Assembly (NCBI GenBank): GCA_017609915.1
Contig: JAFCDA010000001.1
Span: 5,033-69,032, forward strand
Direction: 5' to 3'
DNA from: Candidatus Pacearchaeota archaeon
GTDB lineage: Archaea; Nanobdellota; Nanobdellia; Pacearchaeales; GW2011-AR1
Length of the DNA stretch: 64,000 nucleotides
The translations under genes were made by a program, and so were the position numbers. Each line of letters starts with the position of its first letter. The first letter of the stretch is position 1. Under the pieces are notes generated by a model, which had not been told where the DNA came from, searched no databases, and saw only the letters and a list, made by a program, of their open reading frames with translations. This document shows, piece after piece, positions 11,593 to 37,982 of this stretch.

Positions 11593-11665
11593 TTTTTTAT
11601 TGATTAGATTTAATTAAATATAATGACTATTTAAAGATTATTATGTTTAGATATAGATGAATCAT

Positions 11666-13442: not shown

Positions 13443-15155
13443 TCACATTCTCTTTTTTAACAAATTGTCTCTGATTAATAAATAATTTCTTCTCAAAAAA
13501 TCTAATTTTTCATAATGATAAACTTCTATTTTGTATAAAAAACTTGTAATCCAAAACTGCATTCCGCATTTTCTACATGGCAACATAAATTGGTAACGAA
13601 ATTTGTTTTTAATTAAACAATTTTCATACTGAATTTTTTCATGGCAAAAAGGACATTTAACCTTAACCCTGTATCTATCTTTATTTGTTTTTTTAATTTT
13701 GAGGGGAATAACATAACGAGCATATTTTCTTCTTGCATCTACTATATCTTTTTTTAATTTCAGAATTTCATTATCTGTCATTTTATCAGTCATATTTATC
13801 CAATTAGTATGGGCTATTTTGTTTTTAATAAAAGATAATTTATCTTTAATAATTCCTTTTTTAATACAATGGTGATAAATAGCACTTCCAGGATATGGTT
13901 GAATAAATCCTATTCTAATTGAAGAATCTAAAGGAATATAACCAATGCCTTTTGTTATTTTTTTCCAATAATTAAGAGTTTTATAAGCAGTTTCTTTTGT
14001 TTCAGCAACATCTCCAAAAATAAAATTTCCTTGAATACCTATACCTACTTCTCTTGAAAGTTTTATAACATTATCAATTTGTTGAGGGGTTATTGGTTTT
14101 TTCATACTTTTAAGTACTTTTTCACTATAACTTTCAAAACCAAAACCAACAACAGTACATCCTGCATCTTTTAATGTTTTTAATAATTTTTTATCTACTC
14201 CAGCCACTACTAGTTGACAAGTCCATTTAATTTTCCAAGGTGTGTTTTTAATAAGTTTTTTTATTTTTTTACAAAACTCATATACTCTTTCTTTATTAAC
14301 TGAAAATAAATCATCATAAATTTCAATAGCATTGATTTTATATTTTTTTATTGCTATTTCAAGTTCTTTAATAACTGAATCAATTTGCCTTTCCCTATAT
14401 TTTCTTCCAATACTATGATAACAAAAAGTGCATTGAAAAGCACACCCTCTGCTGGCAAGTATTGGGTAAGACCTTGGATAATCAAATTCTCCATAGAGAA
14501 AATAAGAATTACTTTGATTTTTTAATTTTTCTTCATATCCAAATCCTTCAAAATCTGGCAAAGGCAAGGAATCTAAATCCATTATAAGCTCTCTTGGTTT
14601 TGTGAAAAAAGGTTTTTTATTTTTTGGTTTTGTGAAAAAAGGTTTTTTATTTTTTATATAACCTATTCCATTTATTTTGCTTAAGTTTCTTTTTTTTTCT
14701 AAACATTTTAATAACTCGATTATTGTTGTTTCTCCTTCACCAACTACTACAAAATCTGGGTGTAATGATTTAAGCATTAATTCTGGTTCGCTTGTTATTA
14801 ATGCTCCTCCCACAATAGTTTTTGGTTTAGAAGGATGATTTTTAGCTGCTTTTAATATTTTCTCTATTACCACATAACCTATTCCAGTATGTCCTGAACA
14901 AACAATATCATATTTCTTTTTATTTAATTGTCGAAAAACTAATTCTTCTGTTTTTCCATTTAAATGATTTAAATTTAGGCAATCTACATCATATTTTGCT
15001 TTTTTTAAAACAGCAGAAATATAACCCAATCCTAAAGGAAAATTATACTGATAATTTGTTTTATTGCTCAAATTATATCTTGGAATTACAAGCAATATTT
15101 TCATATTTTCTTTTGTATTTTTTTTAGTGTGTTTTATTAATTTTTGTTTTATCAT
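13443..15155 (-). CDS. B12-binding-domain radical SAM protein (2 of 3) with C-terminal zinc-ribbon extension
   Basis: N-terminal B12-like domain (VVGEGE), CAFQCTFC cluster motif, C-terminal CPFC...CRKC. 570 aa. Confidence 0.8.
   Translation of the reverse strand: MIKQKLIKHTKKNTKENMKILLVIPRYNLSNKTNYQYNFPLGLGYISAVLKKAKYDVDCLNLNHLNGKTEELVFRQLNKKKYDIVCSGHTGIGYVVIEKILKAAKNHPSKPKTIVGGALITSEPELMLKSLHPDFVVVGEGETTIIELLKCLEKKRNLSKINGIGYIKNKKPFFTKPKNKKPFFTKPRELIMDLDSLPLPDFEGFGYEEKLKNQSNSYFLYGEFDYPRSYPILASRGCAFQCTFCYHSIGRKYRERQIDSVIKELEIAIKKYKINAIEIYDDLFSVNKERVYEFCKKIKKLIKNTPWKIKWTCQLVVAGVDKKLLKTLKDAGCTVVGFGFESYSEKVLKSMKKPITPQQIDNVIKLSREVGIGIQGNFIFGDVAETKETAYKTLNYWKKITKGIGYIPLDSSIRIGFIQPYPGSAIYHHCIKKGIIKDKLSFIKNKIAHTNWINMTDKMTDNEILKLKKDIVDARRKYARYVIPLKIKKTNKDRYRVKVKCPFCHEKIQYENCLIKNKFRYQFMLPCRKCGMQFWITSFLYKIEVYHYEKLDFLRRNYLLIRDNLLKKRM
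14596..14655. repeat. perfect 30-bp tandem duplication inside CDS
   Basis: ggttttgtgaaaaaaggttttttatttttt x2. Encodes KNKKPFFTKP twice in the linker between the B12 and radical SAM domains. Confidence 0.9.
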
Positions 15156-21051: not shown

Positions 21052-22473
21052 ATGAAAAAAGTGATATTAATGTATCCTAATTGTAGGTGGAAAAAAGGGT
21101 TTGAAAATAAAACCATATGGAACCTTCATCCTTATAATCTTTGTTTACTTTCTGCAATGATAGAACAAGATTATGAAACTAAAATAGTAGATACTAATAT
21201 TGATGATATATCTAAAGAAGATTTTGTAAAGATTATAGAAGAATATAAACCAGATATAGTTGGAATTTCAGTTCTTACAAATGAATATTTAGATTCTGGT
21301 TTAATTGCTGCAGAAATAGTTAAATCAATAAATTCTGAAATAAAAACAGTTATAGGAGGGGTTGCAACTTTTGATCCTGAATCTATAATTAAAAATGAAA
21401 ACATTGATTATGTTGTAGTGGGTGAAGGAGAATTTACTTTTAAAAAATTATGTAATCATATTTTTAGTGATGGAGATTTGCCATCTAAAGGCCTTGTTTT
21501 TAAAAAAGATGGAGAAATAATAAATCTTGGTCGTTCAGATTTTATAGAAGATTTAGATAGTCTTCCTTTTCCATCATATGATAAAGTTGATTATTTAAAA
21601 TATGCTAATTCAATTCAAAGAGAAAGTGTAGATAGCCCAAGAGAAATGCCTTATGCAAACATAATAACATCAAGAGGCTGTCCTTATAATTGTTGTTTTT
21701 GCCAGGCTGGAAAAATTTCTGGTAAAAAACCAAGGTTTCGTAGTGTAGAAAATATTCTTAAGGAAATTAGTTGGTTAAAAGAAAAATATGGAATAAAAGC
21801 TCTTATTTTTGATGATGATAATCTTCTTGTTGATAAAGAAAGAGCTAAAAATTTATTTAGGGGAATGATTGATAGAGGATTTAATCTAAAATGGAATGCT
21901 ATTGCTATGGCTGCATTTAAATTAGACGAAGAAATGATAGATTTAATGAAAAAAAGTGGATGTCAATATGTAGATATTGCTATTGAATCAGGTGTTGAAA
22001 GAGTACTTCATGATATTATTCATAAACCTTTAAATTTAGAACATGCAAGAGAAGTTCGAGATTTATTAAAAAAATATGAGATTGATTTTGCTGCAAATTT
22101 TATTATGGGATTTCCAGGAGAAACCTGGGATGAAATTAGAAAAACAATTAAATTTGCAGAAGAATTTGATGCAGATTATACTAAAATATTTATTGCAACA
22201 CCTTTACCAAACACAGAATTATATGAAGTTGCCAGAGAAAAAGGTTATTTAAAAGAAAATTTTAGTTTTGATAAACACTTATGGACTGATGGATGGATAG
22301 AAACTGAAGAATTTCGTCCAGAAGATCTAAAAATCTTAAGGGCATATGAATGGGATAGGATAAATTTCTCAAGCCCAGAAAAAATAAAAAAAATTATCTC
22401 TATGATGGACATTAGTGTAGAAAGACTTAATGAGATAAGAAAAAATACACGCAAGAGGGCAAACCCTCAATAA
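21052..22473 (+). CDS. B12-binding-domain radical SAM protein (3 of 3)
   Basis: N-terminal B12-like domain (VVGEGE) and CPYNCCFC cluster motif. 473 aa. Confidence 0.8.
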   Translation: MKKVILMYPNCRWKKGFENKTIWNLHPYNLCLLSAMIEQDYETKIVDTNIDDISKEDFVKIIEEYKPDIVGISVLTNEYLDSGLIAAEIVKSINSEIKTVIGGVATFDPESIIKNENIDYVVVGEGEFTFKKLCNHIFSDGDLPSKGLVFKKDGEIINLGRSDFIEDLDSLPFPSYDKVDYLKYANSIQRESVDSPREMPYANIITSRGCPYNCCFCQAGKISGKKPRFRSVENILKEISWLKEKYGIKALIFDDDNLLVDKERAKNLFRGMIDRGFNLKWNAIAMAAFKLDEEMIDLMKKSGCQYVDIAIESGVERVLHDIIHKPLNLEHAREVRDLLKKYEIDFAANFIMGFPGETWDEIRKTIKFAEEFDADYTKIFIATPLPNTELYEVAREKGYLKENFSFDKHLWTDGWIETEEFRPEDLKILRAYEWDRINFSSPEKIKKIISMMDISVERLNEIRKNTRKRANPQ

Positions 22474-22483: not shown

Positions 22484-23134
22484 ATGAGTCCAAATTTAAA
22501 AAATCTTTCAGATGAAGAAAAAGAAATTAAGATGATTGAGTTTGTAAAAGAGATTGTTGAATTATGGGAAGCTGCAAAAATACCTTATCCTATTCATTTT
22601 AGTGGGGGAAATGAAAAAGAATTAATTAAAATCTTTTCTGAAATTAAAGAAGGAGATTATGTTTTTTCTACGCATAGGGGGCATTATCATTATTTATTAA
22701 AAGGTGGAGATTTTGAAAAGTTAAAAGAATTTATTTTAAGAGGAGATAGTATGCATATTTTTGATAAAGATTTAAAATTTCTTACATCTGCTATTGTTGC
22801 TGGAACTCCCTCTATTGCTGCAGGAGTTGCTTATGCTTTAAAAAAGAAAAATAGTGAAAATAAAGTATGGTGTTTTATTGGAGATGGGGCAGAAGATGAA
22901 GGGCATTTTTATGAAGCAGTTAGGTATGTTGATGGATGGGATTTGCCATGCACATTTATTATAGAAGATAATGATCGGTCTGTTGAAACTCCAAAAAGTG
23001 AAAGATATGGAAAATCTCAAATTCAGTGGCCATCATGTGTTAGAAGATATATGTACAAGCCAAAATATCCTCATGTAGCAACTGAAAATTGGGTTGATTT
23101 TTCAGGAATGAAAGCTGGAGGTCCTTCTTTTTAA
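22484..23134 (+). CDS. TPP-dependent dehydrogenase E1 alpha-like protein (short form)
   Basis: TPP motif IGDGAEDEGHFYEAVRYVDGWDLPCTFIIEDND (GDG...N). 216 aa versus ~320 aa for typical E1 alpha. Confidence 0.6.
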   Translation: MSPNLKNLSDEEKEIKMIEFVKEIVELWEAAKIPYPIHFSGGNEKELIKIFSEIKEGDYVFSTHRGHYHYLLKGGDFEKLKEFILRGDSMHIFDKDLKFLTSAIVAGTPSIAAGVAYALKKKNSENKVWCFIGDGAEDEGHFYEAVRYVDGWDLPCTFIIEDNDRSVETPKSERYGKSQIQWPSCVRRYMYKPKYPHVATENWVDFSGMKAGGPSF

Positions 23135-24774
23135 TGAAATATAAAGAATTAATTAGTGAAGAAATGAAAAAATTAGCAAAAAATGATAAAACTGTCTTTA
23201 TAGGATATAATATTAAAAGAGGTTCAAAAGCTTATGGGACCTTAACAGATGTTCAAGATAAATGTATTGAAATGCCCCTTGCAGAAAATTTAATGACAAG
23301 TTTTGCTATTGGCATGTCTTTAGAAGGCTATAAACCAGTAGTTTTCTTTGAGAGACAAGATTTTATTTTAAATGCCTTAGACTCTATTGTTAATCATTTA
23401 GATAAAATTAAAGAAATGTCTAAAGGAGAATTTGAAACTCCTATAATAATCAGAGCCCCTGTAGGCGGCAAAAAACCTTTAGATCCTGGGATGCAGCATA
23501 CTCAAGATTTTAGTGAGGTATTGAAAAAAATTATTAAATTTCCAGTTTATGAATTAAAAACTGAAGAAGATTTTGCTAATTATTCTAAAATTATTCAAAA
23601 TATAAAAGAACCAACCCTTTTTATAGAGTATAAGGACCTTTATGGAAAAGAAATTGAGCAAAAAGAAAAAATAATTCTTGATAGTCATAAATTAATCTGG
23701 CATACAGAAAGAGTTAATGCATGGTTAAGAGGAGAAAGAATTGCTCCTATAACAATAGATTGCGCATTAACCAGGAGATGTAATTATAGATGTACTTATT
23801 GTTATGGACAATTACAAGCAAATGATGAAAAAAAGATGACTTTAGAGGTAATTCAAAGATTTTTAAAAGATGCTTCTGAAATAGGGGTAAAAGCTGTAAG
23901 TTTTGTAAGTGATGGAGAAAGTTCATGCTCTCCTCATCTTTATGATTCAATAATTTATGGGAAAAAACAAGGACTAGATATGGCTCTTGGAACAAATGGG
24001 TCTTTGCTTAAAAAAGAAGGGCTTAAAGAAGCAATAGAGTGCTTAACCTATCTTAGATTTAATATTTCTGCTGGAGAAAAAGAACGATATAAAGAAATAC
24101 ATGGATGTTCTGATTTAGATTATGATAAAACAATTGAAAATATTAAAGAATGTGTAAAAATAAAAAAAGAAAATAATTTAGATGTTACAATTGGTTTACA
24201 AATGGTTCTCATGTCTGAATTTAAAGACCAAATAATTCCTTTAACAAAATTAGGAAAAGAACTAGGAGTTGATTATTTAGTTATTAAACATTGTAGTGAT
24301 GATGAAGAAGGTAGTTTAGGAATAGATTATGATAAATATTTTGATAAAGATTTAATTGAAAAAATAAAAGAAGCTGAATCTTATTCAGATGAAAATTACT
24401 TAGTTAAAGCAAAATGGTCAAAAATCTTAAGTGGGGGAAAAAGAAATTATTCACGATGTTTTGGACCTCCTTTTATCTTACAGATGTCTGGTTCTGGATT
24501 AGTTGCTCCTTGCGGAATGTTTTTTAATGATAAATATGAAAAATATCATATTGGAAATATAGCTGAAAAATCTTTTAAAGAGATTTGGGAAAGCGATAGA
24601 TATTGGGAAGTTATGGATTTAATTGCTTCTGAAGATTTTGATGCAAAAACAATGTGTGGAACTTTATGCTTGCAGCATAAAGTAAATGAATATCTCTGGG
24701 ATTTAAAAGATAAAGGGGTAACTAATATAGATGTACCAGAAGGAGAAGCTCCAATGCATCTTAATTTTATTTGA
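23134..24774 (+). CDS. fusion protein: E1 beta-like (transketolase pyrimidine-binding) N-domain + radical SAM domain
   Basis: aa 1-~175 carry MPLAENLMTSFAIGMSLEGYKPVVFFERQDFILNALDSIVNH (E1-beta/Transket_pyr-like). aa ~185-546 are radical SAM with C216NYRC220TYC223. Confidence 0.65.
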   Translation: MKYKELISEEMKKLAKNDKTVFIGYNIKRGSKAYGTLTDVQDKCIEMPLAENLMTSFAIGMSLEGYKPVVFFERQDFILNALDSIVNHLDKIKEMSKGEFETPIIIRAPVGGKKPLDPGMQHTQDFSEVLKKIIKFPVYELKTEEDFANYSKIIQNIKEPTLFIEYKDLYGKEIEQKEKIILDSHKLIWHTERVNAWLRGERIAPITIDCALTRRCNYRCTYCYGQLQANDEKKMTLEVIQRFLKDASEIGVKAVSFVSDGESSCSPHLYDSIIYGKKQGLDMALGTNGSLLKKEGLKEAIECLTYLRFNISAGEKERYKEIHGCSDLDYDKTIENIKECVKIKKENNLDVTIGLQMVLMSEFKDQIIPLTKLGKELGVDYLVIKHCSDDEEGSLGIDYDKYFDKDLIEKIKEAESYSDENYLVKAKWSKILSGGKRNYSRCFGPPFILQMSGSGLVAPCGMFFNDKYEKYHIGNIAEKSFKEIWESDRYWEVMDLIASEDFDAKTMCGTLCLQHKVNEYLWDLKDKGVTNIDVPEGEAPMHLNFI

Positions 24775-24938
24775 ATAAAAAATAATCTTAAAATATTAAA
24801 AGGTAACTAAATAATATCCATATCTTGATAAGAATAACGAGTGAGAAAAAGATTTGTAAAGCTTTAAAATGAGTAGAGATTCAAGATGGTTTGCATAACT
24901 TAAAGATATAATAAGATTCCAGTAAATAATATAAAAAA

Positions 24939-25997
24939 ATGGCAGTAGATAGTAAAATTGACGGGCATAAATTAATCCTGCATCCAAAAAGGGTGGCTGA
25001 ATGGAAAGAAAAAGGAGATTGTTATCCAATATATATTGAGATAGGTCCTACAAATATATGTAATCATAGATGTATTTTTTGTGCTTTAGATTATCTTGGA
25101 CATGAAGGATTTAATATAGACACAGAACTTATGATTAATACCTTAAAAGAAATCGGGGAAAAGGGTGTTAAATCTATAATGTTTGCCGGAGAAGGAGAAC
25201 CTCTTGCGCATAAAGATATTGGATTATTTGTTCAAACAGCAAAACAATCTGGAATAGATGTTTCTATTACAACAAATGGGGTATTATTTAATAAAGAAAA
25301 AGCAGAACAATTTCTTCATCATTTATCTTGGATAAGGTTTAGTATTGATGCTGGAACTTCTGAAACTTATAATAAAGTTCATAGAGGGGGAGAAAATGAT
25401 TTTAACAAAGTTATAGAAAACATAAAAAATGCTGTTGAAATTAAAAAAGCAAAAAATCTAAACACTGTGATTGGAATTCAGTTTTTAATGATTCCTGATA
25501 ATCTAAATGATGTTCTTAAACTTGCTCAAATAGCAAAAGATATTGGGGCAGATAATTTGCAAATAAAACCTTATTCTCAGCATCCAAAAAGTGAAAATAG
25601 TTTAGTACTATATTATGAAGATTATGCGCATTTAGAAAAAGAACTTGAAAAGTTTAATTCACCTGATTTTAAAATCTTCTTTAGAAAACAGACAATGCAA
25701 AGAGTTGAACAAGGAATCAATTATTCTGGATGTCATGGGCTTCCATTTTTTGCTCTAATAGATGCAAAAGGAAACATAATTCCATGCAATCTTTTTTATG
25801 ATATTCCAGAATTTACATATGGAAATTTACATGAAAACAGTTTTTCAGAAATTTGGAAAAGTGAAAAAAGACAACAAGTTTTACAAAGAATAAGAGAAAA
25901 AGGAATTGAAGATTGCAGACATGCATGTAGATTAGATGTTATTAACAGATATTTACAAAGATTAAAAAATCCTCAATCACATGATAATTTTGTGTGA
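24939..25997 (+). CDS. radical SAM protein, paralog of the C-terminal domain of 23134..24774
   Basis: HKLILHPKRVAEWKEK...CNHRCIFC parallels HKLIWHTERVNAWLRG...CNYRCTYC. Collinear similarity runs to the C-terminus (HDNFV vs HLNFI). Confidence 0.75.
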   Translation: MAVDSKIDGHKLILHPKRVAEWKEKGDCYPIYIEIGPTNICNHRCIFCALDYLGHEGFNIDTELMINTLKEIGEKGVKSIMFAGEGEPLAHKDIGLFVQTAKQSGIDVSITTNGVLFNKEKAEQFLHHLSWIRFSIDAGTSETYNKVHRGGENDFNKVIENIKNAVEIKKAKNLNTVIGIQFLMIPDNLNDVLKLAQIAKDIGADNLQIKPYSQHPKSENSLVLYYEDYAHLEKELEKFNSPDFKIFFRKQTMQRVEQGINYSGCHGLPFFALIDAKGNIIPCNLFYDIPEFTYGNLHENSFSEIWKSEKRQQVLQRIREKGIEDCRHACRLDVINRYLQRLKNPQSHDNFV

Positions 25998-26067: not shown

Positions 26068-27015
26068 ATGATGAATAAAGTATTAATTATAAAAACTGGG
26101 TATTCTGAGGTTTTAGATAGAAGAAATAATTCAAGAGTAGTAAGTTTTGGAGATGTATTAAGAACAACTCCATTATTACATCTTTATAAAGACAATCATA
26201 TAACTTGGGTCACAGATGAAAAAGCGATTCCATTACTTAAACACAACCATTTAATTAATCGTCTACTCGTTTTAGATTTTATTTCAATATCTCAATTACA
26301 AACAGAAGAATTTGATGTTGTGATAAATCTTGAAAAAATTCCTGGAATATGTGCACTTGCAGACAAAATAAGAGCAAGAAGAAATAGATATGGATTTACT
26401 TTTAATAGTCAAACTGGAGAAGCAGAAGCATATGATAAATCCCATGATATCCTTAGCCTGAGTACAAATCAAGAATTAAAAAGAAGTAATAAAAAAACTG
26501 CCCAAGAACTTTTATTTGAAATAGTTGGGGAAGAATGGAAAGGGGAAGAATATGTTCTTGGATATCAACCTAAAACAGAGGAAAAATACACTGTTGGTTT
26601 AAACAGCATTGTAGGACTTAAATGGCCAACTAAAGCCTGGCCAGCAGAAAATTGGGATGAATTAACTGAAATATTAAAAAATGGAGGGATAGTAGTAAGC
26701 AGACAAGACCAACAACCTAAAGAAACATTAACAGACCTCTTTAAGTATATGGATTGGATAAATTCTTGTAAATTAATTGTTAGCAATGATAGTCTTGGAA
26801 TGCATTTGGGAATAGCATTAAAGAAAAAAATTTTAGGATTATTTGGAGCAACATCTCCTTATGAAGTGCATTTTTATGGTGATGGAAAACCAATTATGCC
26901 AAATCCTATCCCAAGTTGTTTACCTTGTTTTAGAGGTTCTTGTGAAAGAAGAAAAAATTGTATAAATGAGATTACTCCTGAAAAAGTATATCAAGAGATT
27001 AGGAAGCTTATATAA
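26068..27015 (+). CDS. glycosyltransferase family 9-like protein (second copy) with Cys-rich C-terminus
   Basis: VLIIKTGYSEVL...FGDVLRTTPLL, SNDSLGMHLGIAL. C-terminal CLPCFRGSCERRKNC. Confidence 0.65.
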   Translation: MMNKVLIIKTGYSEVLDRRNNSRVVSFGDVLRTTPLLHLYKDNHITWVTDEKAIPLLKHNHLINRLLVLDFISISQLQTEEFDVVINLEKIPGICALADKIRARRNRYGFTFNSQTGEAEAYDKSHDILSLSTNQELKRSNKKTAQELLFEIVGEEWKGEEYVLGYQPKTEEKYTVGLNSIVGLKWPTKAWPAENWDELTEILKNGGIVVSRQDQQPKETLTDLFKYMDWINSCKLIVSNDSLGMHLGIALKKKILGLFGATSPYEVHFYGDGKPIMPNPIPSCLPCFRGSCERRKNCINEITPEKVYQEIRKLI

Positions 27016-27066: not shown

Positions 27067-28032
27067 ATGAATAAAAAAGATTTAGAAACATATGGTTCTG
27101 GTTTATTAGATTTTCATACTCATTCAACTTTCTCTGATGGGGGAGATACCCCAACACAACTTGTAGAAAGAGCTAAAAAACAGGGGGTTACTGCAATGGC
27201 TTTAACAGACCATCATGGTCATAAAGGATTACCTGAATTTATAGCTGCATGTAAGCAATATGATATATTTCCAATACCTTTTGGAGTTGAAATTGCTGCA
27301 GAACTTCCTGAAAAAGTTTTAACACCACAAGATATGTCTTCTCCTGATTTAATTATTCTTGGAAAAAATCCAAATGTAAAACCTATGAAAGGATATCAAG
27401 AAATATATTTTAATGATTTGGAAAAAAGGCATTTACCTGAAATATTAGCTGGATTAAGAAAGGTTGGTTTTGAATTACCTGTTGTAAATCTAAAAGAACA
27501 ATGTGCTTCTTTTCATGCTCCTCCAGATATACTTCATGATTTTGTTCATTATAAAAAAAATATGCAAGTTTTAAAAAATTATGTTAAAACAAAGGATTCA
27601 AATGTTAGTGATGCAGACATTGAAAAAAAACCAATAGCATTTGCTAATAGATGGTTATATGCTGTAGGTATGCCTGCTTATACAGCAAGATTTAAAGGTT
27701 TTAGCCTTGATAGTGCACTTCAATTAGTTGAAGAGATGAACTGTAAACTATTTATTGCACACCCTGGAGGAGATTATGGGTTTTTAACAGATGCTATGTT
27801 AAATTATTTTACTGAGAAGAAAATCCATGGAATTGAGATAAGAAGTTATCTTAACAGCCCTGAACAAAATGCTAAATTTGATAAATTAGCTAAAGAACAC
27901 AATCTAATAAGATCTGGAGGTTCTGATTGTCATGGTGCCAAGGGGCCTTTTAGAATGGGAATATATGATCGTCCACAAAATCAACTTCCTAAAGATGTTT
28001 TAGAAGAGCTTATGGACTGGTTGCCTTCTTAA
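27067..28032 (+). CDS. PHP-domain metal-dependent phosphoesterase
   Basis: DFHTHSTFSDGGDTP, ALTDHH, GGSDCHG. Confidence 0.75.
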   Translation: MNKKDLETYGSGLLDFHTHSTFSDGGDTPTQLVERAKKQGVTAMALTDHHGHKGLPEFIAACKQYDIFPIPFGVEIAAELPEKVLTPQDMSSPDLIILGKNPNVKPMKGYQEIYFNDLEKRHLPEILAGLRKVGFELPVVNLKEQCASFHAPPDILHDFVHYKKNMQVLKNYVKTKDSNVSDADIEKKPIAFANRWLYAVGMPAYTARFKGFSLDSALQLVEEMNCKLFIAHPGGDYGFLTDAMLNYFTEKKIHGIEIRSYLNSPEQNAKFDKLAKEHNLIRSGGSDCHGAKGPFRMGIYDRPQNQLPKDVLEELMDWLPS

Positions 28033-28224: not shown

Positions 28225-29136
28225 ATGGACCCAATACAAATCCCTCAAGGTTACAATTATATATCTGCATTTTTAACAATGAGATGCAATCTTAATTGTA
28301 GTTTTTGCTTAAATTCAATTGACAAAAGCAGAGAATTTAATAGGACAAAATTTAAAGAGCTTTCTGGAGAGCAATGGGTTAAAGCATTAAATAGGATTGA
28401 ATCACGTCCAGAAGTTCCAGTAACCTTTTCAGGAGGAGAGCCTTTTTTACATCCAGATTTTCTTTATATCCTTAAGAATCTTAAAAAAGATTTAAACATA
28501 GATATTTTAACTAATTTATCTTTTGAAGTAGCTGTTGAAAAATTTTTAAAAGAAATAGACCCAGAAAGAATAAAGAGAAATGTTCCTTATGCTTGTATTC
28601 GTGTTTCTTATCATCCAGAACAAATGGGAAATGGTGCAGAACTTATTGAAACAGTTAAAAAACTAAAAGATGCTGGATTTAGTATTGGTGTATGGAGTGT
28701 TTTATATCCTTCTTTTGAAAATCTCTCTGCAATAAATCAAATGCAATTTAGATGTATAGATGCAGGAATTGATTTTAGATTAAAAGAATATACTGGAACC
28801 TATAAGGGAGACTTATATGGAGATTATTCTAAATATTCTAACTCAGTTTTATCAAATAAATTAAAAAAATGCTTATGTAAGGGCTCTGAATTATTAATAG
28901 CTCCAAATGGAAATATTTACAAATGTCACAGTGATTTATTTAGTGAAGAATTTCCTATAGGAAATATTCTTGACCCTAATTTCCAAATTAAAAACGAATT
29001 TAGAAAATGTGAGAAATATGGTCAGTGCCATCCATGTGATGTAAAACTTAAGACAAATTATAAACAAGAATTAGGGAATACCTCTGTTGAAATAAAAGAA
29101 ATAGAAGATAATTCTCAACCGAAAGTTATAGTTTAA
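28225..29136 (+). CDS. radical SAM protein (small, C-terminal Cys-rich)
   Basis: CNLNCSFC cluster motif, FSGGEPFLHPDF, C-terminal CEKYGQCHPCD. Confidence 0.75.
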   Translation: MDPIQIPQGYNYISAFLTMRCNLNCSFCLNSIDKSREFNRTKFKELSGEQWVKALNRIESRPEVPVTFSGGEPFLHPDFLYILKNLKKDLNIDILTNLSFEVAVEKFLKEIDPERIKRNVPYACIRVSYHPEQMGNGAELIETVKKLKDAGFSIGVWSVLYPSFENLSAINQMQFRCIDAGIDFRLKEYTGTYKGDLYGDYSKYSNSVLSNKLKKCLCKGSELLIAPNGNIYKCHSDLFSEEFPIGNILDPNFQIKNEFRKCEKYGQCHPCDVKLKTNYKQELGNTSVEIKEIEDNSQPKVIV

Positions 29137-29223: not shown

Positions 29224-30840
29224 TTAAAATGTTTTTTTTATAGATTTTTTAACTAATTTTAAATCCTTAAATAATTTTTTTATAACTGATTTTATCACCA
29301 TTAAATCCTCTTTATCAAGAGAATGTGAAATAATTATTAAAGACAAGTAAAGTAAAATAAACAAAGAGGTTAAAATTATAATTGAAAAAACATTAATTGT
29401 AACTTTTTCTATTAAATAAAATAAAACTCCTGTTGGGATTATTGAAACTAAGATTATAGTAAACATCTTTCTTTTTAAAGGTATAAATGAAAGATGTTTT
29501 TTTGTTTGTATAATCAAAAGGGTATTTAAAAAGATTATAGATAAAACAGTTGCAAGAGAAGCTCCGATTAAACCATTTGAATTATCTAAAGAAAACAAAA
29601 CAGGTATTGGAACTAATATTGAATTTAATATTAAATTAACAATTGCAGATATAGATATATTAAACAAGATTAACTTAGATTTACCTAACATTGAAATAAG
29701 ATTTGTTGAAATCATAAATAATGCAGAAATAAATGTTCCAATTAGCAAAAATTTAAGGGCAATTTGTGCAATAACATATTGACTTCCAAAAAGGATATTT
29801 AATGATGCTCCTGAAAAAAAGAATATTAAAATAAAAATTGGAAGAATTGCCATAAATATCCATTTATTTACTTGTTTACTAAGCTGTTTGATTAAAGCAT
29901 TATTTTTTGCAGAATATTGTCTTGTTATAAGTGGAAAAAATAACTGCATAAATAATTGTGGGACAATCATTATAAGCATTGCAATTGGCACAGCTGCATT
30001 ATAAAACCCAACTTCTACTGCAGATTTATAATAACCTAAAGAAATAGTATCAATCCAATGAAAAATAATAGATATAGCTGCAAAAAATAATAATGGCCAG
30101 GAATATTGAAAAAACTCTTTACTAATCTTTGAATAATCTTTTTTCTCATAAGAACCAAAGATTTTATTTATTTTATTTTTACAAACTAAATAAGCAGCAA
30201 ATAATGTAAGAATTGAACCAGATATGTAAGACCAAACAACAGCATTTCCTCCTGAATTAAAACCTATGAAAATAAGAATTATAAGCACACCTACACGGAC
30301 TAAATTTTGAAAAATATTAAAAATAAAAGAATACCATCCAATCTTTTCAAACCCTCTAAGCACTGTGAGAAATATACTTGCAAGCATTACAGCAAGAATT
30401 GAAAAACTCATTATTTTTAGAAAAATAGAAAGGCTTGGATTATGAAATATTTGTATTGAAATAAAATCTGATAAACCAATTAAAACTATTGAAGCAATTA
30501 TCCCAGAGATTAAATAAAATCTCAGTGTTTTTCTAAATAAATACCTCATCTCATTAATCTTTTTTCTCTCTCTTAATAATGGGACAAATCTTAATAATCC
30601 ATCTACAAAACCAAAAGAAGCAATTGTGATAAAAAGAGGGATTACAGATAAAACAAGAGAAAATAATCCATAAATTTCTGGGCCATAATAACGAGCAATA
30701 ATTATCCTATAAGCATACATTAAAACTTTTGATAAAAAAAGTCCAATAAAAACAATAAAAGAAGATTTCATAATTAGTTTAAGAGATTTATTAAGCTGAT
30801 TTTCTCTTGTAATATGTTCCTGATTTTTCAAATGTTCCAT
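29224..30840 (-). CDS. oligosaccharide/polysaccharide flippase (MOP superfamily, Wzx-like)
   Basis: 538 aa with ~14 TM helices by eye. N-terminal pattern typical of polysaccharide biosynthesis (Wzx) proteins. Closes the glycan island. Confidence 0.7.
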   Translation of the reverse strand: MEHLKNQEHITRENQLNKSLKLIMKSSFIVFIGLFLSKVLMYAYRIIIARYYGPEIYGLFSLVLSVIPLFITIASFGFVDGLLRFVPLLRERKKINEMRYLFRKTLRFYLISGIIASIVLIGLSDFISIQIFHNPSLSIFLKIMSFSILAVMLASIFLTVLRGFEKIGWYSFIFNIFQNLVRVGVLIILIFIGFNSGGNAVVWSYISGSILTLFAAYLVCKNKINKIFGSYEKKDYSKISKEFFQYSWPLLFFAAISIIFHWIDTISLGYYKSAVEVGFYNAAVPIAMLIMIVPQLFMQLFFPLITRQYSAKNNALIKQLSKQVNKWIFMAILPIFILIFFFSGASLNILFGSQYVIAQIALKFLLIGTFISALFMISTNLISMLGKSKLILFNISISAIVNLILNSILVPIPVLFSLDNSNGLIGASLATVLSIIFLNTLLIIQTKKHLSFIPLKRKMFTIILVSIIPTGVLFYLIEKVTINVFSIIILTSLFILLYLSLIIISHSLDKEDLMVIKSVIKKLFKDLKLVKKSIKKTF

Positions 30841-34539: not shown

Positions 34540-35223
34540 ATGGCGGCACAAACAAAATGGCAAAGTTTTGAGGAATTTTTAGTTAATCAACCAATCCAAG
34601 TAGATTATTTTTATTTGATAATTGCTTTACTAATAGCTGCATTACTTTCATTTATATTAGGTAAACTTTATGTGAAATATGGGACTTCTATTTCAAATAG
34701 GAGAAAATTTTCATCTAATTTTGTCTTGGTTACAACTACTACTACTTTAATTATAATGATTGTTAAATCATCTCTTGCACTTTCATTAGGGCTTGTTGGA
34801 GCATTATCAATTGTAAGATTTAGGGCAGCAATAAAAGAACCTGAAGAACTAGCTTTCTTGTTTCTCACAATTTCAATTGGATTAGGATTAGGTGCAGGAC
34901 AATTATTAACAACAATTATAGCTTTTTTTATAATTTCTTTATTAATTTGTGGGCGTCATTTTTATTATAAAAAAGAAGAAAATCAAAATCTATATTTAAC
35001 TGTTTCTGGAAAAAATATTAAACTAAAAGATATAGTTGATGCATTAAACAAACATTGCTCATCTGTTCATTTAAAACGTTTTGACCAATTAGAAGAAGGA
35101 TTAGAAGCCTCTTTTTTAGTTGATTTTGATTCTTTCCAAAAATTAGAAAAAACAAAAAGAGAGTTAAATTCTCTTTCAAAAGAAGTTAATATAACATACC
35201 TTGATAAATCGGGCTTAGATTAA
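34540..35223 (+). CDS. DUF4956-like membrane protein
   Basis: LVGALSIVRFRAAIKEPEELAFLFLTISIGLGLGAG resembles the DUF4956 core. 4 TM helices plus a soluble C-terminal domain. Confidence 0.6.
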   Translation: MAAQTKWQSFEEFLVNQPIQVDYFYLIIALLIAALLSFILGKLYVKYGTSISNRRKFSSNFVLVTTTTTLIIMIVKSSLALSLGLVGALSIVRFRAAIKEPEELAFLFLTISIGLGLGAGQLLTTIIAFFIISLLICGRHFYYKKEENQNLYLTVSGKNIKLKDIVDALNKHCSSVHLKRFDQLEEGLEASFLVDFDSFQKLEKTKRELNSLSKEVNITYLDKSGLD

Positions 35224-35225
35224 AA

Positions 35226-37982
35226 ATGAAATTAAAAGAAAGGAAAGAAGGTAATTTTTTTTATTATTTAAAGAAAAGTTTAAAATTTATTTCTAGAGGT
35301 ATATTTAATAAAAAAACAAAAATCATTTTCTGGATTTTAATTCTGATTGTTCTTTTTTCAATGGGAACGCTTTTTGGATTATTAATTTCTGGTTTTTTTG
35401 GGACATTTGATGAGCCCTCACAAAGAGTTATAGATTTATTGCATTCTAAAGGCATAATAGGGCTTAAAAATATTAAACGCCAAATGGAAGGGGTTATTAG
35501 TGAAAATTTCAAGATTCCAATTAATTACATAGCAGGCCAATTTTCAAAACCTAAGAAAATCTTTATTGATATTGGTCTTGATAATTATAAAAGAATAGAG
35601 TATAAACGTGAACAAGCATTAGATATTGGGGTGCTTGTTACTTCTGGAGAAGATTATGTTCCTGCAGAGATTAGATATAAAGACCAGGTAGTTAATGTAA
35701 ACTTAAGATTAAAAGGAGATTGGGTGGATCATCTTGAAGGAGATAAATGGTCTTTTAGAATTAAAACAAAAGGAGATACGCTTTTTGGAATGAAAACTTT
35801 TTCAATACAAGACCCAAAAACTAGAAATTATTTAAATGAATGGTTGTATCATCAGGCTCTTGAAAGAGAAGATGTCTTATCTCTTAAGTATGATTTTGTA
35901 GAGGTTGTTATAAATGGAGAAAATAAAGGCATATATGCTTTAGAAGAACATTTTGAAAAACAATTAATTGAACGAAATAATAGGAGAGAAGGATTGATTA
36001 TTAAATTTAATGAAGATCCTATGTGGGATGAAATTGTAAAAATAAATAATTATTATACTCATCCTCTTGAATTAATTAGTGCTTTAGATAATAAATCTTT
36101 AGATTGGTTTTATAGTAGCAGTATAGAAACTTTTACTAATGAAAAATCTTTAAAAGATCCTTATTTAGCTAAACAATTTGAAGAAGCTAGTAGTTTATTA
36201 GAATCTTTTAGAAGAGGTTCATTAGGAGTTTCAGAAGTTTTTGATACAGATAAACTTGCAAAATATTTTGCTATTAATACATTAATGGGAACTGGACATG
36301 CTTCTACATGGAATAATATTAGATTTTATTATAATCCTATAACTTCCCGTTTAGAACCAATTGGTTTTGATGCAAATTGTGATGTTGAGGCCCCATATAA
36401 TGTTATCGGAGATTATATTCCTCCTTGTTTATCTAATGAAAACAATTGTTCTCAAAAAATAGAATCTTTTTCTGATTTATTTCTCAGGGATAAAGAATTT
36501 TTTGAAAAATATATGAAAGAATTAGATAAATTTTCTCAAAAATCTTATTTAGATAGCTTATTTTTAGATTTGGGTGATGACCTTGAAAAAAATTTAAACA
36601 TTATTCATAAGAATTATCCCTTTTATTGTTTTTCCATCCAATCTTTTTATGAAAGACAGAAACGAATAAGAGAAGGATTAACCCCTTTGAAAAGTATAAA
36701 TGCATATTTTCAGAAAAGTTTACCTTCTCAAAATGAACTTGTTTTATATATTGGAAATGTGAAGTTCATCCCTTTAGAAATTGAAAATTTAGTTTATAAT
36801 GATTCTGTTATCTTTCACTTAATTGAAGGTGATAAACTTCTTCAACCAAAAATAGCTTCTGAGCCTGTAGATTATCAAAAGTTTAATTTTAAAATTCCTG
36901 CTGGTTTTTCATGGAATGACAGCTTTGCTTCAGATTTAAAGATTAATTATAAAATCTTGGGAATTGAGGGGATAAAAGAAGAGATTGTTTCTCCCTGGTC
37001 TTATGTTGAAGAAAACTTCTTAGAAGAAGATTTTATAAGGCAAGAAACAAATATTAGTTCTTTTGAATTATTAATAATAGAAGAAGATACTAAATCAATA
37101 TTTATTCAAAAAGGGTCGTGGATTTTAAATCAAAGTATGACTATTCCTCCAGGATTTAGTGTGTATTGTAATGAAGGAACAAGTATTAATCTTATGAATG
37201 GTGCAACAATACTTTCTTATTCAGACTTACAATTTTCTGGATCAGACGAAAATCCAATTAAAATCTTTTCATCTGATAGAACTGGGCAAGGCCTTACATT
37301 ATTAAATGTCGAACGTGTTTCTAATCTTAAACATGTTATTTTTAATGATTTGACAAGTCCAATTAAAAAAGGCTGGGAACTTTCTGGAGCAATCAACTTT
37401 TATAAATCTCCTGTTAAATTAGAGAATATTATTATCAAAGATATTAATTCAGAAGATGGTTTAAATATAATTGACTCTGAATTTGAAATTAGAGATTCTC
37501 ATTTTGAAAATTGTATTTCAGATTGTTTTGATGGTGATTTTGTAGAAGGTCCTATAAAATCTTCTTCATTTATTGGTTGTGGAAATGATGGTTTAGATTT
37601 TTCAGGAAGTTTTGTTGATATAGAAAATATTGATATTTTAAATGTAGGAGACAAAGGGATAAGTGTTGGAGAAGATAGTAATGTAACAATAGAGAATGCA
37701 AAGATAAATGGAGATAAGTTAAATAAAGGTTATATTGGAATTGCAAGTAAGGATAAATCACAAGTTTTTATTAAAAATAGTGAAATTTCAAATGTTGAGT
37801 ATGGTCTTGCAGTTTATGAAAAAAAATCTGAATTTGGAGCTGCTTCAATAAATGCTATCAATATTAATTTTTCTAATATAAATAATAGTTATATTATTGA
37901 AAAAGAATCATCTCTTTTAATTGATGATGTTATGATGCTTAATAAAGAAGAAGAAGTTTATAAAAAATTATATGAATTATGA
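35226..37982 (+). CDS. CotH kinase-like protein with C-terminal beta-helix repeats, N-terminal TM anchor
   Basis: GDWVDHLEGDKWSFRIKTKGD...FSIQDPKTRNYLNEWLYHQALERE...VVINGENKGIYALEEHFEKQLIE matches the CotH family pattern. The C-terminal ~300 aa look like a right-handed beta-helix. Confidence 0.65.
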   Translation: MKLKERKEGNFFYYLKKSLKFISRGIFNKKTKIIFWILILIVLFSMGTLFGLLISGFFGTFDEPSQRVIDLLHSKGIIGLKNIKRQMEGVISENFKIPINYIAGQFSKPKKIFIDIGLDNYKRIEYKREQALDIGVLVTSGEDYVPAEIRYKDQVVNVNLRLKGDWVDHLEGDKWSFRIKTKGDTLFGMKTFSIQDPKTRNYLNEWLYHQALEREDVLSLKYDFVEVVINGENKGIYALEEHFEKQLIERNNRREGLIIKFNEDPMWDEIVKINNYYTHPLELISALDNKSLDWFYSSSIETFTNEKSLKDPYLAKQFEEASSLLESFRRGSLGVSEVFDTDKLAKYFAINTLMGTGHASTWNNIRFYYNPITSRLEPIGFDANCDVEAPYNVIGDYIPPCLSNENNCSQKIESFSDLFLRDKEFFEKYMKELDKFSQKSYLDSLFLDLGDDLEKNLNIIHKNYPFYCFSIQSFYERQKRIREGLTPLKSINAYFQKSLPSQNELVLYIGNVKFIPLEIENLVYNDSVIFHLIEGDKLLQPKIASEPVDYQKFNFKIPAGFSWNDSFASDLKINYKILGIEGIKEEIVSPWSYVEENFLEEDFIRQETNISSFELLIIEEDTKSIFIQKGSWILNQSMTIPPGFSVYCNEGTSINLMNGATILSYSDLQFSGSDENPIKIFSSDRTGQGLTLLNVERVSNLKHVIFNDLTSPIKKGWELSGAINFYKSPVKLENIIIKDINSEDGLNIIDSEFEIRDSHFENCISDCFDGDFVEGPIKSSSFIGCGNDGLDFSGSFVDIENIDILNVGDKGISVGEDSNVTIENAKINGDKLNKGYIGIASKDKSQVFIKNSEISNVEYGLAVYEKKSEFGAASINAININFSNINNSYIIEKESSLLIDDVMMLNKEEEVYKKLYEL

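Follow-up and report, generated by a model that had tools for sequence, protein, structure and literature searches.

What would a subunit of a ThDP-dependent enzyme do in one polypeptide with a radical SAM domain? This question is raised by three consecutive genes of a DPANN-type archaeon, which lie in the window, by which we mean the whole 64,000-nucleotide stretch of a Candidatus Pacearchaeota contig (JAFCDA010000001.1) that was analysed. An earlier note, made from the sequence alone, described them as a short E1-alpha-like gene, a fusion of an E1-beta-like domain with a radical SAM domain, and a second radical SAM gene. All three ORFs are found on the plus strand, and Pfam, motif and fold evidence agree with these domain calls. 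Together the three make up the core of a conserved cassette for sugar tailoring, in which the ThDP pair lies between or beside two radical SAM enzymes, rSAM-B and rSAM-A. Their features are as follows.

22484..23134, + strand: ThDP subunit alpha, short E1-alpha-like, PP domain only (216 aa; Pfam E1_dh, GDG-X27-N)
23134..24774, + strand: fusion protein with Pyr, Radical_SAM and SPASM domains (546 aa)
23134..23649, + strand: ThDP subunit beta, pyrimidine-binding (Pyr) domain without Transketolase_C (fusion aa 1-172)
23650..23676, + strand: interdomain linker GKEIEQKEK, the former gene boundary (fusion aa 173-181)
23677..24774, + strand: rSAM-A domain, CX3CX2C and a C-terminal SPASM/twitch-like four-Cys region (fusion aa 182-546)
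24939..25997, + strand: rSAM-B, distantly paralogous to rSAM-A and its conserved partner (352 aa; Pfam Radical_SAM and SPASM)

The ThDP subunits and the two radical SAM enzymes

The Pfam E1_dh match of the alpha subunit (8e-20) is confined to profile positions 7-172 of 300. The full E1_dh domain of heterotetrameric E1 enzymes (~300 profile positions, 320-400 aa) is not found in 22484..23134, and the protein scores 89.8 bits against NCBIfam PDH_E1_alph_y (cut-off 393.85). The gene had been called truncated; it is short, but this is a property of the whole family, as every one of the best 120 of 1,354 homologues has 204-249 aa. The TPP motif is indeed kept, with a spacing that had been given approximately (N25) and is GDG-X27-N (G133, D134, G135 ... 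E161, D162, N163). It aligns to GDGAANQG...ENN in human E1-alpha, and these six residues are invariant across 22 homologues. As the note had seen, the stop of this gene overlaps the next start: its TAA shares one base with the ATG of 23134..24774 (TAATG).

In the fusion protein, Pfam places Transket_pyr at aa 2-171 (profile 4-173 of 174), Radical_SAM at aa 212-363 (PF04055, 61.2 bits, cut-off 29.5) and SPASM at aa 442-509 (PF13186, 32.5 bits, with 38.8 for rSAM-B, cut-off 21.5). The proposed relationship of the N-terminal ~175 aa to TPP enzymes is borne out by the Transket_pyr match and by E51 (PLAEN), which aligns to the cofactor-activating Glu of the solved E1-beta 1um9_B. The ThDP signature of heterotetrameric E1, GDG-X(24-30)-N in alpha and the activating Glu in beta, is present, and both parts are conserved in homologues. 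The Transketolase_C domain that follows Transket_pyr in such enzymes is absent from the fusion protein, where the linker and radical SAM domain stand instead, and none of the 38 window ORFs scanned has a 2-oxoacid_dh or lipoyl domain. For an alpha subunit without the C-terminal half of E1-alpha and a beta subunit without its C-terminal domain, catalytic competence is assumed from motif conservation.

The C216-X3-C220-X2-C223 motif of rSAM-A is invariant in 37 sequences, and rSAM-B matches PF04055 at 84.8 bits (cut-off 29.5). The second radical SAM gene had been described as a paralogue of the fused domain; it is collinear with fusion aa 182-526 (E 2e-56), but is a distinct conserved partner and not a mere copy. 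With just 31% identity to rSAM-A, rSAM-B is an old paralogue from a separate orthologous group and not a recent duplicate. Its auxiliary Cys pattern, C265-X17-C283-X42-C326-X3-C330, is that of rSAM-A. The canonical SPASM domain has a 7-Cys motif and two auxiliary [4Fe-4S] clusters. The SPASM region has four conserved Cys in rSAM-A and in rSAM-B, with C265 and C387 upstream, a pattern as compatible with a single, twitch-like cluster as with a non-canonical SPASM domain.

By structure comparison, the solved folds nearest to the radical SAM domains are BlsE and DesII, at 12-17% sequence identity. This likeness is structural only: rSAM-B scores 47.4 and 54.6 bits against the DesII (TIGR04426) and BlsE (TIGR04466) equivalogs, with cut-offs of 450 and 400, and neither family is among the top 25 NCBIfam matches of rSAM-A. 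The best NCBIfam match, the radical SAM maturase of a tungsten-cofactor oxidoreductase (TIGR04317), was likewise rejected at 96.3 (rSAM-A) and 119.9 bits (rSAM-B) for a cut-off of 380. DesII is a TDP-4-amino-4,6-dideoxyglucose deaminase/dehydrogenase and BlsE a cytosylglucuronate decarboxylase, and we know of no ThDP enzyme partner for either. The twitch/SPASM dehydrogenases BtrN and anSME, which form a carbonyl from an alcohol and use no NAD, are also among the fold matches and similarly carry a Cys-rich auxiliary-cluster region C-terminal to the radical SAM core.

Reality and origin of the fusion

A base lost at the gene boundary during sequencing or assembly could have joined beta and rSAM-A genes that are really separate. 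This exact fusion protein is known from one contig only, and in the closest relatives that are unfused the two genes overlap by 4 bp, so that one single-base error could yield a fusion; in the syntenic archaeal contig L013 this overlap (ATGA; TGA/ATG) lies at the linker position. Set against this, ~11 fused beta::rSAM-A homologues (60-69% identity) exist, as well as further fusion types. The homologues come from independent samples and assemblers, in NCBI, JGI, ENA and Logan assemblies, and their linkers (7-35 aa, E/K-rich) differ in length and sequence; L093 also carries the fused form. The linker of the window copy is in frame and coding-like, and has a pLDDT below 50 at residues 173-180 of the predicted structure. 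Because independent fused homologues with varied linkers exist and the unfused overlap of L013 falls at the same place, the beta::rSAM-A fusion is real; an artefact is extremely improbable, and the cassette and remaining fusions would hold even if the window copy were unfused.

Comparison with the unfused relatives indicates that the beta gene was fused in frame, end to end, with the downstream rSAM-A gene via loss of the 4-bp stop/start overlap. Elsewhere, beta subunits occur as Pyr-only, stand-alone genes of 163-197 aa, and stand-alone orthologues stop right after the Pyr domain. The note had held that the radical SAM domain replaced the C-terminal domain of E1-beta; one such Pyr-only subunit has instead joined its neighbour gene end to end, and no evolutionary replacement took place. 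Split-gene transketolases and DXS are also ThDP enzymes made of PP and Pyr domains, but the known split transketolases, unlike the cassette beta subunits, keep their C-terminal domain. The fused form is a minority, with none among 79 genome loci and one among ~14 adjacent pairs in metagenome loci. Fusions of neighbouring genes are frequent in small genomes, and are no proof of channelling.

The cassette and its glycan setting

The core of rSAM-B, ThDP enzyme and rSAM-A is present in 79 species-level MAG/SAG genomes from many phyla of anaerobes, within glycan clusters. Neighbourhoods were counted within 7 kb for the 49 genome loci seeded on rSAM-A whose flanks were long enough. An E1/TK-type alpha and beta pair was found in 41 of these 49 loci and rSAM-B in 37, its orthologues (39-68% identity) lying beside the ThDP pair. 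Two of the remaining loci have an ALS-type ThDP gene instead, within ~3 kb upstream of rSAM-A and, in L057, directly adjacent to it. Alpha-seeded sampling left the gene order unchanged. One slot is filled by four unrelated ThDP lineages (short E1-like, transketolase-like, full-length E1 and ALS/YerE-like), and what these have in common is the generation of a ThDP-bound two-carbon carbanion. GmhA/HldE-like genes occur in 17 of the 49 loci and adjoin the transketolase-like lineage (1.8e-61).

Several separate fusions join the two enzyme classes: beta::rSAM-A, alpha::beta::rSAM-A (P0012), beta with a different radical SAM domain (P0266, two assemblies) and ALS-type::rSAM-B (seven proteins). Others are linked to sugar nucleotides, namely CTP_transf (nucleotidyltransferase)::rSAM-B, GT9::rSAM-B (L087), GT2::rSAM-A and rSAM-DegT-rSAM. 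On viral contigs the short ThDP pair lies next to radical SAM or ADH/SDR genes, some with a radical SAM gene between beta and alpha; elsewhere, often at viral loci, a single-chain short ThDP module is flanked by Zn-ADH and SDR genes, with no radical SAM gene. A few loci (L061, L062) lack a ThDP enzyme and combine rSAM-A with GT2 and two small genes of unknown type, so that the rSAM-A reaction may be independent of the ThDP step. Conserved synteny, the four lineages in one slot and the several independent fusions argue for a genuine functional tie between ThDP and radical SAM chemistry.

Within the window, the cassette belongs to a surface-glycan island of 30 kb that also encodes glycosyltransferases, a flippase and three B12-radical SAM enzymes, and Pfam scans of the window genes uphold the glycan-island setting that the note had given. 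The neighbouring genes of interest are listed here.

13443..15155, - strand: second B12-binding radical SAM enzyme in this island, conserved together with the cassette (Pfam)
21052..22473, + strand: B12-binding radical SAM enzyme directly upstream, probable C-methyltransferase or rearranging enzyme (Pfam B12-binding and Radical_SAM)
26068..27015, + strand: GT9-family glycosyltransferase (heptosyltransferase family), 'GT9 + rSAM-C' flavour (Pfam Glyco_transf_9, 2.8e-16)
27067..28032, + strand: PHP-domain phosphoesterase, possible sugar-phosphate phosphatase, window-specific (Pfam PHP, 5.1e-14)
28225..29136, + strand: rSAM-C, SPASM type, cassette member (Pfam Radical_SAM and SPASM)
29224..30840, - strand: polysaccharide flippase, Wzx/MOP type, cassette border (Pfam Polysacc_synt, 3e-25)

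Most of these genes recur with the cassette. The enzyme at 21052..22473, whose best NCBIfam matches (HpnJ and P-methyltransferase types) are far under cut-off, has a 59% orthologue within the L013 cassette, and that at 13443..15155 has 51-52% orthologues in L013, L086 and L087. Orthologues of the GT9 gene (62-65%) are found in L013 and L084, and GT9 adjoins rSAM-B in 11 of the 49 loci. It accompanies rSAM-C (52-68% orthologues in L013, L084 and L087) without exception in rSAM-A-seeded loci, and the flippase has syntenic counterparts in L013, in L084 and at the P0012 locus. The PHP gene is a doubtful cassette member, having no counterpart in the 79 related loci or in L013, L084, L086 and L087. 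The window contains no GmhA/HldE-type activation genes.

Proposed chemistry and its alternatives

Attachment of two-carbon branches to sugars by AviB1/AviB2-type pairs had been taken as established. For AviB1/AviB2 (avilamycin) and Pau11/Pau12 (paulomycin), C-4 acetyl branching of a sugar from pyruvate is a proposed role, and the characterised precedent named is YerE, a ThDP-dependent flavoprotein that adds the two-carbon branch of yersiniose onto CDP-4-keto-3,6-dideoxyhexose (PMC4753412). As in the descriptions of AviB1/AviB2 and Pau11/Pau12, the window has a two-subunit pair of E1-alpha/beta homologues in a sugar (deoxysugar/glycan) cluster, outside central metabolism; an E2/E3 partner is likewise missing, here among the 38 ORFs scanned. 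Unlike in AviB1/AviB2, its alpha subunit matches the E1_dh profile over roughly the first half and its beta subunit is the Pyr domain alone; the cassette partners are radical SAM enzymes, with beta fused to one; and instead of actinomycetes, it is uncultured anaerobes, archaea and viruses that carry the genes. Some related loci continue with an SDR ketoreductase, as paulomycin does with Pau7, and the Zn-ADH/SDR-flanked ThDP loci, together with the SDR ketoreductase at the end of the P0266 locus, mirror the keto formation, C2 addition and ketoreduction of branched octoses (PMC4753412). YerE is resembled by the ALS/YerE-type enzymes next to rSAM-A in L057 and fused to rSAM-B, whereas the window enzyme belongs to the E1/transketolase structural family and not to ALS/POX. 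The keto acceptor of the yersiniose pathway comes from NDP-hexose dehydratase-type enzymes, not from radical SAM enzymes.

Our preferred reading, to which we assign a probability of about 0.55, is that the radical SAM enzymes make or reshape a keto-sugar nucleotide to which the ThDP enzyme adds a two-carbon branch; we infer the step order, the identity of the sugar and that of the 2-oxo acid donor. The substrate would be a nucleotide-activated sugar, and a heptose type is indicated because many relatives carry GmhA/HldE-like genes or GT9. One radical SAM enzyme would abstract H and then oxidize or dehydrate the sugar to a keto-sugar in a DesII/BtrN/BlsE-type reaction free of NAD and oxygen; BlsE and DesII, the nearest folds, act on nucleoside- or nucleotide-linked sugars, in favour of such a scheme. 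The ThDP heterodimer would decarboxylate a 2-oxo acid, probably pyruvate, although in the transketolase-like lineage the donor might be a ketose or hydroxypyruvate, and would transfer the two-carbon acyl-anion onto the sugar carbonyl (YerE/AviB1-B2 logic), yielding a sugar with a C-branch or an extended chain. The second radical SAM enzyme may process the branched product further, with methylation by B12-radical SAM enzymes, transfer by GT9/GT2 and export by the flippase.

The note had suggested a coupling of TPP and radical chemistry, which stands as a functional link; as hybrid catalysis it is matched by sequential steps on one sugar, which are equally explanatory. In such catalysis a sugar radical made by the radical SAM enzyme would be captured directly by the ThDP enamine (Breslow intermediate), forming a C-C bond by a radical route. 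Covalent fusions of ThDP modules with radical SAM domains have arisen at least three times, with differing ThDP families and radical SAM paralogues, the radical SAM gene between beta and alpha in viral loci suggests a single tight complex, and one-electron ThDP intermediates are known in pyruvate:ferredoxin oxidoreductase (PFOR). However, most cassettes are unfused, the short module beside plain NAD(P) dehydrogenases without radical SAM genes fits polar carboligation on a ketone, and the radical and polar routes are indistinguishable from sequence; we consider hybrid catalysis unlikely. PFOR is, to our knowledge, the sole well-known enzyme class that joins ThDP, Fe-S clusters and one-electron chemistry, and a PFOR-like oxidative decarboxylation of a 2-oxo acid might instead make the ThDP module a source of low-potential electrons, which would reach and reduce the radical SAM cluster by way of the auxiliary Fe-S cluster. 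This role is given little chance, as carboligation is the known chemistry of the transketolase-like and ALS/YerE-like enzymes that also fill the slot, the same module is found beside ADH and SDR where radical SAM is absent, the association is particular to the rSAM-A and rSAM-B classes and not general to radical SAM enzymes, and no ferredoxin-like domain lies between the ThDP and radical SAM parts. A built-in electron source would suit DPANN cells that have few reductases.

Finally, the ThDP pair could be a mini-transketolase that supplies a ketose phosphate (e.g. sedoheptulose-7-P) for GmhA/HldE-like activation or disposes of 5-deoxyribose derived from 5'-deoxyadenosine, a by-product of the radical SAM reaction. 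The clearly transketolase-like lineage beside GmhA/HldE-like genes would suit this role, as would the transketolase-dependent formation of 7-deoxysedoheptulose from a radical SAM by-product in cyanobacteria (PMC8261047). The window pair is nevertheless E1-like, further lineages are full-length E1 or ALS-like and not transketolases, the pair persists in the GT9 flavour without GmhA/HldE, and the cassette has no conserved 5'-dAdo nucleosidase or phosphorylase. A supply enzyme would also hardly account for fusion to rSAM-A or rSAM-B, and the odds of this explanation appear slim.

Under the preferred reading of keto-sugar formation and two-carbon branching, the fusion is probably a sign of a physical complex in which a labile keto intermediate passes from one active site to the other. 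The architecture had been thought unfamiliar, and we found no published description of a ThDP and radical SAM cassette or fusion in the literature, but it is not a one-off: the fusion in the window is one version of a widespread, uncharacterised ThDP and radical SAM cassette that is mostly unfused.

Genes of the ThDP–rSAM triplet

An earlier note had placed three consecutive same-strand open reading frames in this region, and all three are present at exactly these coordinates (double colons mark domains joined in one protein):

22484-23134, +, alpha, a short E1-alpha-like thiamine diphosphate (ThDP) subunit of 216 aa (Pfam E1_dh, 8e-20, covering only profile positions 7-172 of 300)
23134-24774, +, the fusion beta::rSAM-A, 546 aa, whose Transket_pyr domain is complete (aa 2-171; profile positions 4-173 of 174) and is followed in Pfam by Radical_SAM (212-363) and SPASM (442-509)
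24939-25997, +, rSAM-B, a radical SAM (rSAM) protein of 352 aa with Radical_SAM and SPASM domains

The TAA of alpha and the ATG of the fusion gene share one base (TAATG). Alpha keeps the GDG-X27-N ThDP motif, which aligns with that of human E1-alpha, and E51 of the fusion, the Glu of its PLAEN motif, lines up with the Glu that activates the cofactor in E1-beta subunits of solved structure. The view that alpha is truncated did not survive comparison with its relatives, as such a short length is typical of the large family to which it belongs (1,354 matches, the best 120 of which are all 204-249 aa with an invariant ThDP motif); this common length rules out a truncation or pseudogene. Compared with the E1/transketolase family, the ThDP part appears to work alike but is without the full alpha and the C-terminal domain of beta, which are the E1-defining features. 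Judged from sequence, this minimal enzyme of 216 + 172 residues may be of interest in its own right as the smallest E1-type catalytic core.

Alignment of rSAM-B with aa 182-526 of the fusion is collinear at 31% identity, and the two rSAMs have in common a C-terminal four-Cys pattern (C-X17-C-X42/47-C-X3-C), which fits at least one auxiliary cluster. A recent tandem duplication was ruled out by the low identity and by the distinct orthologous groups to which rSAM-A and rSAM-B belong. The AlphaFold2 model of the fusion (mean pLDDT 83.3, pTM 0.65) placed DesII at the top of a Foldseek search against the PDB (E 9e-15), followed by SPASM/twitch peptide maturases, anSME, BlsE, PqqE, viperin and MoaA. 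E1-beta chains matched the N-terminal part, in agreement with Transket_pyr in Pfam and with the earlier suggestion that this end is TPP-enzyme-like. Pfam assigns the rSAM part to the radical SAM superfamily and its SPASM/twitch group; it falls in no curated equivalog, and its top NCBIfam score (96-120 bits) stays below the cut-off of 380.

The window has a G+C content of ~27%, the nearest homologues of its proteins carry the labels Nanoarchaeota or Pacearchaeota, and its gene order is shared across more than 20 genes with L013, a 375-kb contig labelled 'uncultured archaeon'. These features identify its source as a DPANN-type archaeon.

Distribution of the cassette and its ThDP partners

Stand-alone relatives of rSAM-A form a very large family of ~367 aa proteins with 52-77% identity to the rSAM half of the fusion. 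A scan for rSAM-A with one genome per species gave 79 loci, every one from a MAG or SAG, in more than a dozen phyla and with no cultured host. The bacterial loci include members of Omnitrophota, Elusimicrobiota, Nitrospirota, Desulfobacterota, Planctomycetota (including anammox bacteria), Patescibacteria, Fibrobacter, Lachnospiraceae, Campylobacterota and Dehalococcoidia, and the archaeal loci members of Woese-/Nanoarchaeota, Methanosarcinales and Thermoplasmatota. Mapping of the window proteins onto the 79 loci revealed a recurring gene order of rSAM-B, ThDP-alpha, ThDP-beta, an optional GT2 and rSAM-A. In the 49 loci whose flanks reach at least 5 kb upstream and 2.5 kb downstream, both ThDP subunits were present in 41, an rSAM-B orthologue lay no more than 7 kb away in 37, and a ThDP enzyme of any of four lineages was close to rSAM-A in 43. 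Independent, alpha-seeded sampling of metagenome contigs found the same order in close relatives, and one more beta::rSAM-A fusion (L093) in ~14 adjacent pairs. The three-enzyme core is conserved, lies within glycan clusters and has intact cofactor motifs.

Two mutually exclusive flavours were observed among the 49 loci: one with GmhA-like and HldE-like heptose-activation genes (17 loci), and one with a GT9 glycosyltransferase and rSAM-C, a third SPASM enzyme (11 loci). The window is of the latter type, with GT9 at 26068-27015 (+) and rSAM-C at 28225-29136 (+), and a search of the window for GmhA and HldE homologues found none. Between these genes, in the window alone, lies a PHP-domain phosphoesterase gene (27067-28032, +) that has no counterpart in the related loci; as a guess, it might substitute for a GmhB-type sugar-bisphosphate phosphatase. 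Two small conserved open reading frames (173 and 176 aa) follow rSAM-A in 18 of the 79 loci (e.g. L003, 9237-10292); these genes of the bacterial cassettes have no Pfam or NCBIfam match and are absent from the window.

Non-orthologous ThDP enzymes occupy the slot that lies between the two rSAM genes or next to them. The enzymes comprise (i) the short E1-like pair of the window (alpha 205-216 aa, beta ~174 aa), also found in L007, L013 and L080; (ii) a transketolase-like N-terminal half (263-292 aa; 1.8e-61 to transketolase) with a Pyr-only subunit; (iii) full-length pairs resembling PDH-E1-alpha and -beta (2e-95 and 8e-99); and (iv) an acetolactate-synthase/YerE-type enzyme, immediately upstream of rSAM-A in L057 (a Nanoarchaeota SAG) and also present in L037. 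Single-chain alpha::beta proteins occur inside the cassette in L117, L121, L126 and L127.

Relatives of the short alpha (53-64% identity) are also carried by 121 IMG/VR viral contigs. About 60 of the 80 retrieved (L171-L250) have the order beta-rSAM-alpha or alpha-beta-rSAM, and also carry a GT2 of 561 aa plus several unassigned open reading frames. In ~15, the neighbours of a single-chain alpha::beta are a Zn-dependent alcohol dehydrogenase and, in many cases, an SDR; in two contigs a terminase large-subunit gene immediately follows this single-chain module. rSAM-A proper is nearly missing from viral contigs (two loci). Further alpha relatives were retrieved in L129-L167 (e.g. L150, 5874-10664; L167, 2940-11331).

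Origin of the fusion and its parallels

The beta::rSAM-A fusion is genuine. A public search for such single open reading frames had been advised in the earlier note, and our word-indexed search of 5.8 billion proteins recovered ~11 more (546-577 aa, 65-69% identity) with the architecture Transket_pyr + Radical_SAM (+ SPASM), drawn from NCBI, JGI, ENA and Logan assemblies; in P0012 (802 aa) an E1-alpha-like part is joined to this architecture as well. All four retrieved fused loci (L084-L087) have a short alpha immediately upstream of the fusion and a paralogous rSAM upstream of alpha. That the fusion is an artefact is hardly credible.

The halves belong to two distinct genes in L013, with the end of beta (...KDLYEQE-TGA) carrying a stop that overlaps the ATG of MTNELILDGHKLLWH..., whereas the window reads through the same boundary without interruption (...KDLYGKEIEQKEKIILDSHKLIWH...). 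The linker between the domains is E/K-rich and varies among fused homologues from ~7 aa (window) up to ~35 aa, and residues 173-180 of the window's fusion are the sole long low-confidence stretch of the AlphaFold model. This difference at the boundary and the variable linker show the fusion to be an end-to-end joining of two adjacent, translationally coupled genes. Replacement of the C-terminal domain of E1-beta by an rSAM domain, as originally supposed, did not occur, because a Pyr-only beta (163-197 aa) is already widespread as a stand-alone gene. Fused and unfused proteins were intermixed in a neighbour-joining tree of rSAM-A that carries no support values.

ThDP enzymes have become physically joined to these rSAMs repeatedly and independently, as further fusions showed in an exhaustive search with HMMER (1.84 billion representatives) and in Pfam scans of its long matches. 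P0266 is a Transket_pyr::rSAM::SPASM protein of only 34% identity whose rSAM is another paralogue than rSAM-A; it was found in two assemblies, with a short alpha gene, a methyltransferase and an SDR as neighbours. P0362 represents seven proteins (48-78% identity, on contigs of up to 222 kb) with the architecture TPP_enzyme_N/M/C::rSAM::SPASM, and the rSAM in it is orthologous to rSAM-B, with 56% identity to the window's copy.

The rSAMs are also linked to nucleotidyltransferase, glycosyltransferase and aminotransferase domains. Orthologues of rSAM-B are joined to a cytidylyl/adenylyltransferase domain in P0322 (57%) and P0318, and to GT9 in a 675-aa protein (L087, 6263-8290); rSAM-A is joined to GT2 in proteins of 629-643 aa (P0025; L078, 9203-11134); and a protein of 1,631 aa combines two related rSAM-SPASM units with a DegT sugar aminotransferase between them. 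These unusual fusions of related loci, from L087, L078, P0025, P0341 and P0482, also include an ALS-type ThDP enzyme::DegT aminotransferase protein of 1,015 aa. Three rSAM/SPASM relatives (P0250, P0273 and P0281) contain inteins (Hint/Intein_splicing) near the N-terminal cluster-binding region, one of them with an additional LAGLIDADG homing endonuclease.

Glycan context and predicted chemistry

The first 31 kb of the window is a glycan island encoding glycosyltransferases (a GT-C enzyme, two GT9, two GT2, GT4 and GT6), an NDP-sugar epimerase/dehydratase, a DegT aminotransferase, an FkbM methyltransferase, sulfatase, PAPS-reductase-like and phosphodiesterase genes, and a flippase. Six rSAM genes are present, three SPASM-type and three B12-binding:

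6493-8037, -, B12-binding rSAM gene
13443-15155, -, B12-binding rSAM gene
21052-22473, +, B12-binding rSAM gene

All three B12-binding rSAMs have orthologues in L013, L084, L086 and L087, and their top family matches (HpnJ, P-methyltransferases) are far under the cut-off; hopanoid-like HpnJ/HpnK chemistry was set aside on the weakness of this match. Fosfomycin-type phosphonate pathways combine a ThDP decarboxylase, a B12-rSAM and a cytidylyltransferase; such a pathway was ruled out because the island has no PEP mutase and the ThDP enzyme is E1-type rather than Ppd-type.

Several other genes of the window merit mention. Adjoining type I phosphodiesterase/nucleotide pyrophosphatase, PAPS-reductase-family and sulfatase-family genes (9414-12874) suggest glycan sulfation or phospho-modification. 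The second GT9 overlaps a nucleoside 2-deoxyribosyltransferase-like gene (135 aa), with a QueC-like PP-loop gene nearby (2561-4080, -, and 5345-6037, +); this nucleoside/deazapurine-type pair is odd content for an archaeal glycan island. A unit at 34540-38736 (+) comprises DUF4956, a CotH-kinase-like protein of 918 aa that has a beta-helix, and a VTC-domain protein; DUF4956 (67% identity) and CotH also adjoin the cassette in L087 (1-2675). A PD-(D/E)XK (Cas4-like) nuclease (51374-52210, -) and a tyrosine integrase (58332-59216, -) in the right-hand part of the window may mark an integrated element.

The description that fits best is a fused variant of a sugar-tailoring module that combines ThDP and rSAM enzymes and is widespread but uncharacterised. 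We favour, with a probability of roughly 0.55, sequential keto-sugar formation by an rSAM and C2 addition by the ThDP enzyme on a nucleotide-activated sugar. The substrate would probably be of heptose type in many lineages, with no activation genes in the window. One rSAM would use DesII/BtrN-type chemistry to turn a hydroxyl-bearing carbon into a carbonyl, to which the ThDP enzyme would add a two-carbon acyl-anion supplied by a 2-oxo acid, as YerE does; the other rSAM would remodel the product. This scheme draws support from three sides: formation of a ThDP-bound C2 carbanion is all that the four ThDP lineages share; loci that lack rSAMs carry two NAD(P)-type oxidoreductases, enzymes that usually make and reduce keto-sugars, one on each side of the minimal ThDP module; and related rSAMs are fused to DegT aminotransferases, which likewise consume keto-sugars.

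The earlier note had envisaged a coupling of TPP-carbanion to radical chemistry on a sugar. Its partnership of ThDP and rSAM enzymes is borne out, being conserved and situated in glycan clusters, but sequential chemistry explains a simple fusion of neighbouring genes. A composite active site formed by the ThDP module and the rSAM domain, in which a ThDP-bound enamine directly acylates a SAM-derived sugar radical, is unlikely in our view. If true, it would be a natural radical ThDP carboligase, arisen repeatedly on four ThDP scaffolds and spread over DPANN archaea, many anaerobic bacterial phyla and their viruses; to our knowledge, radical ThDP carboligation is otherwise confined to engineered or photo-driven ThDP enzymes. 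We consider it improbable that the ThDP module is a PFOR-like electron donor, and about equally improbable that the pair is a mini-transketolase for supply or salvage; an explanation of another, unforeseen kind takes the remaining probability.

Precedents for sequential chemistry each represent one half of the system, as none of YerE, AviB1/B2-Pau11/12, DesII, BlsE and BtrN joins both. In yersiniose, YerE attaches a two-carbon acyl-anion that derives from a 2-oxo acid, and AviB1/AviB2 are only proposed to perform the same addition in avilamycin (PMC4753412). Our full-text literature search found no description of the cassette, the fusion or a ThDP–rSAM partnership on sugars, nor of any pathway or enzyme coupling the two on a sugar, and for AviB1 nothing beyond the proposed sugar-branching precedent.

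Anaerobes have in rSAM and ThDP enzymes two main toolkits for C-C and C-H chemistry. We show that their pairing is not confined to one contig but is conserved, convergent, also virus-borne and biochemically unexplored. The conserved pairing, the four unrelated ThDP scaffolds and the several single-protein fusions predict an unknown surface sugar, probably C-branched or chain-extended, made without oxygen or NAD. The natural fusions (beta::rSAM-A and the alpha::beta::rSAM-A protein P0012) provide ready constructs for biochemistry and structure, and the pairing points to possible new enzyme chemistry.
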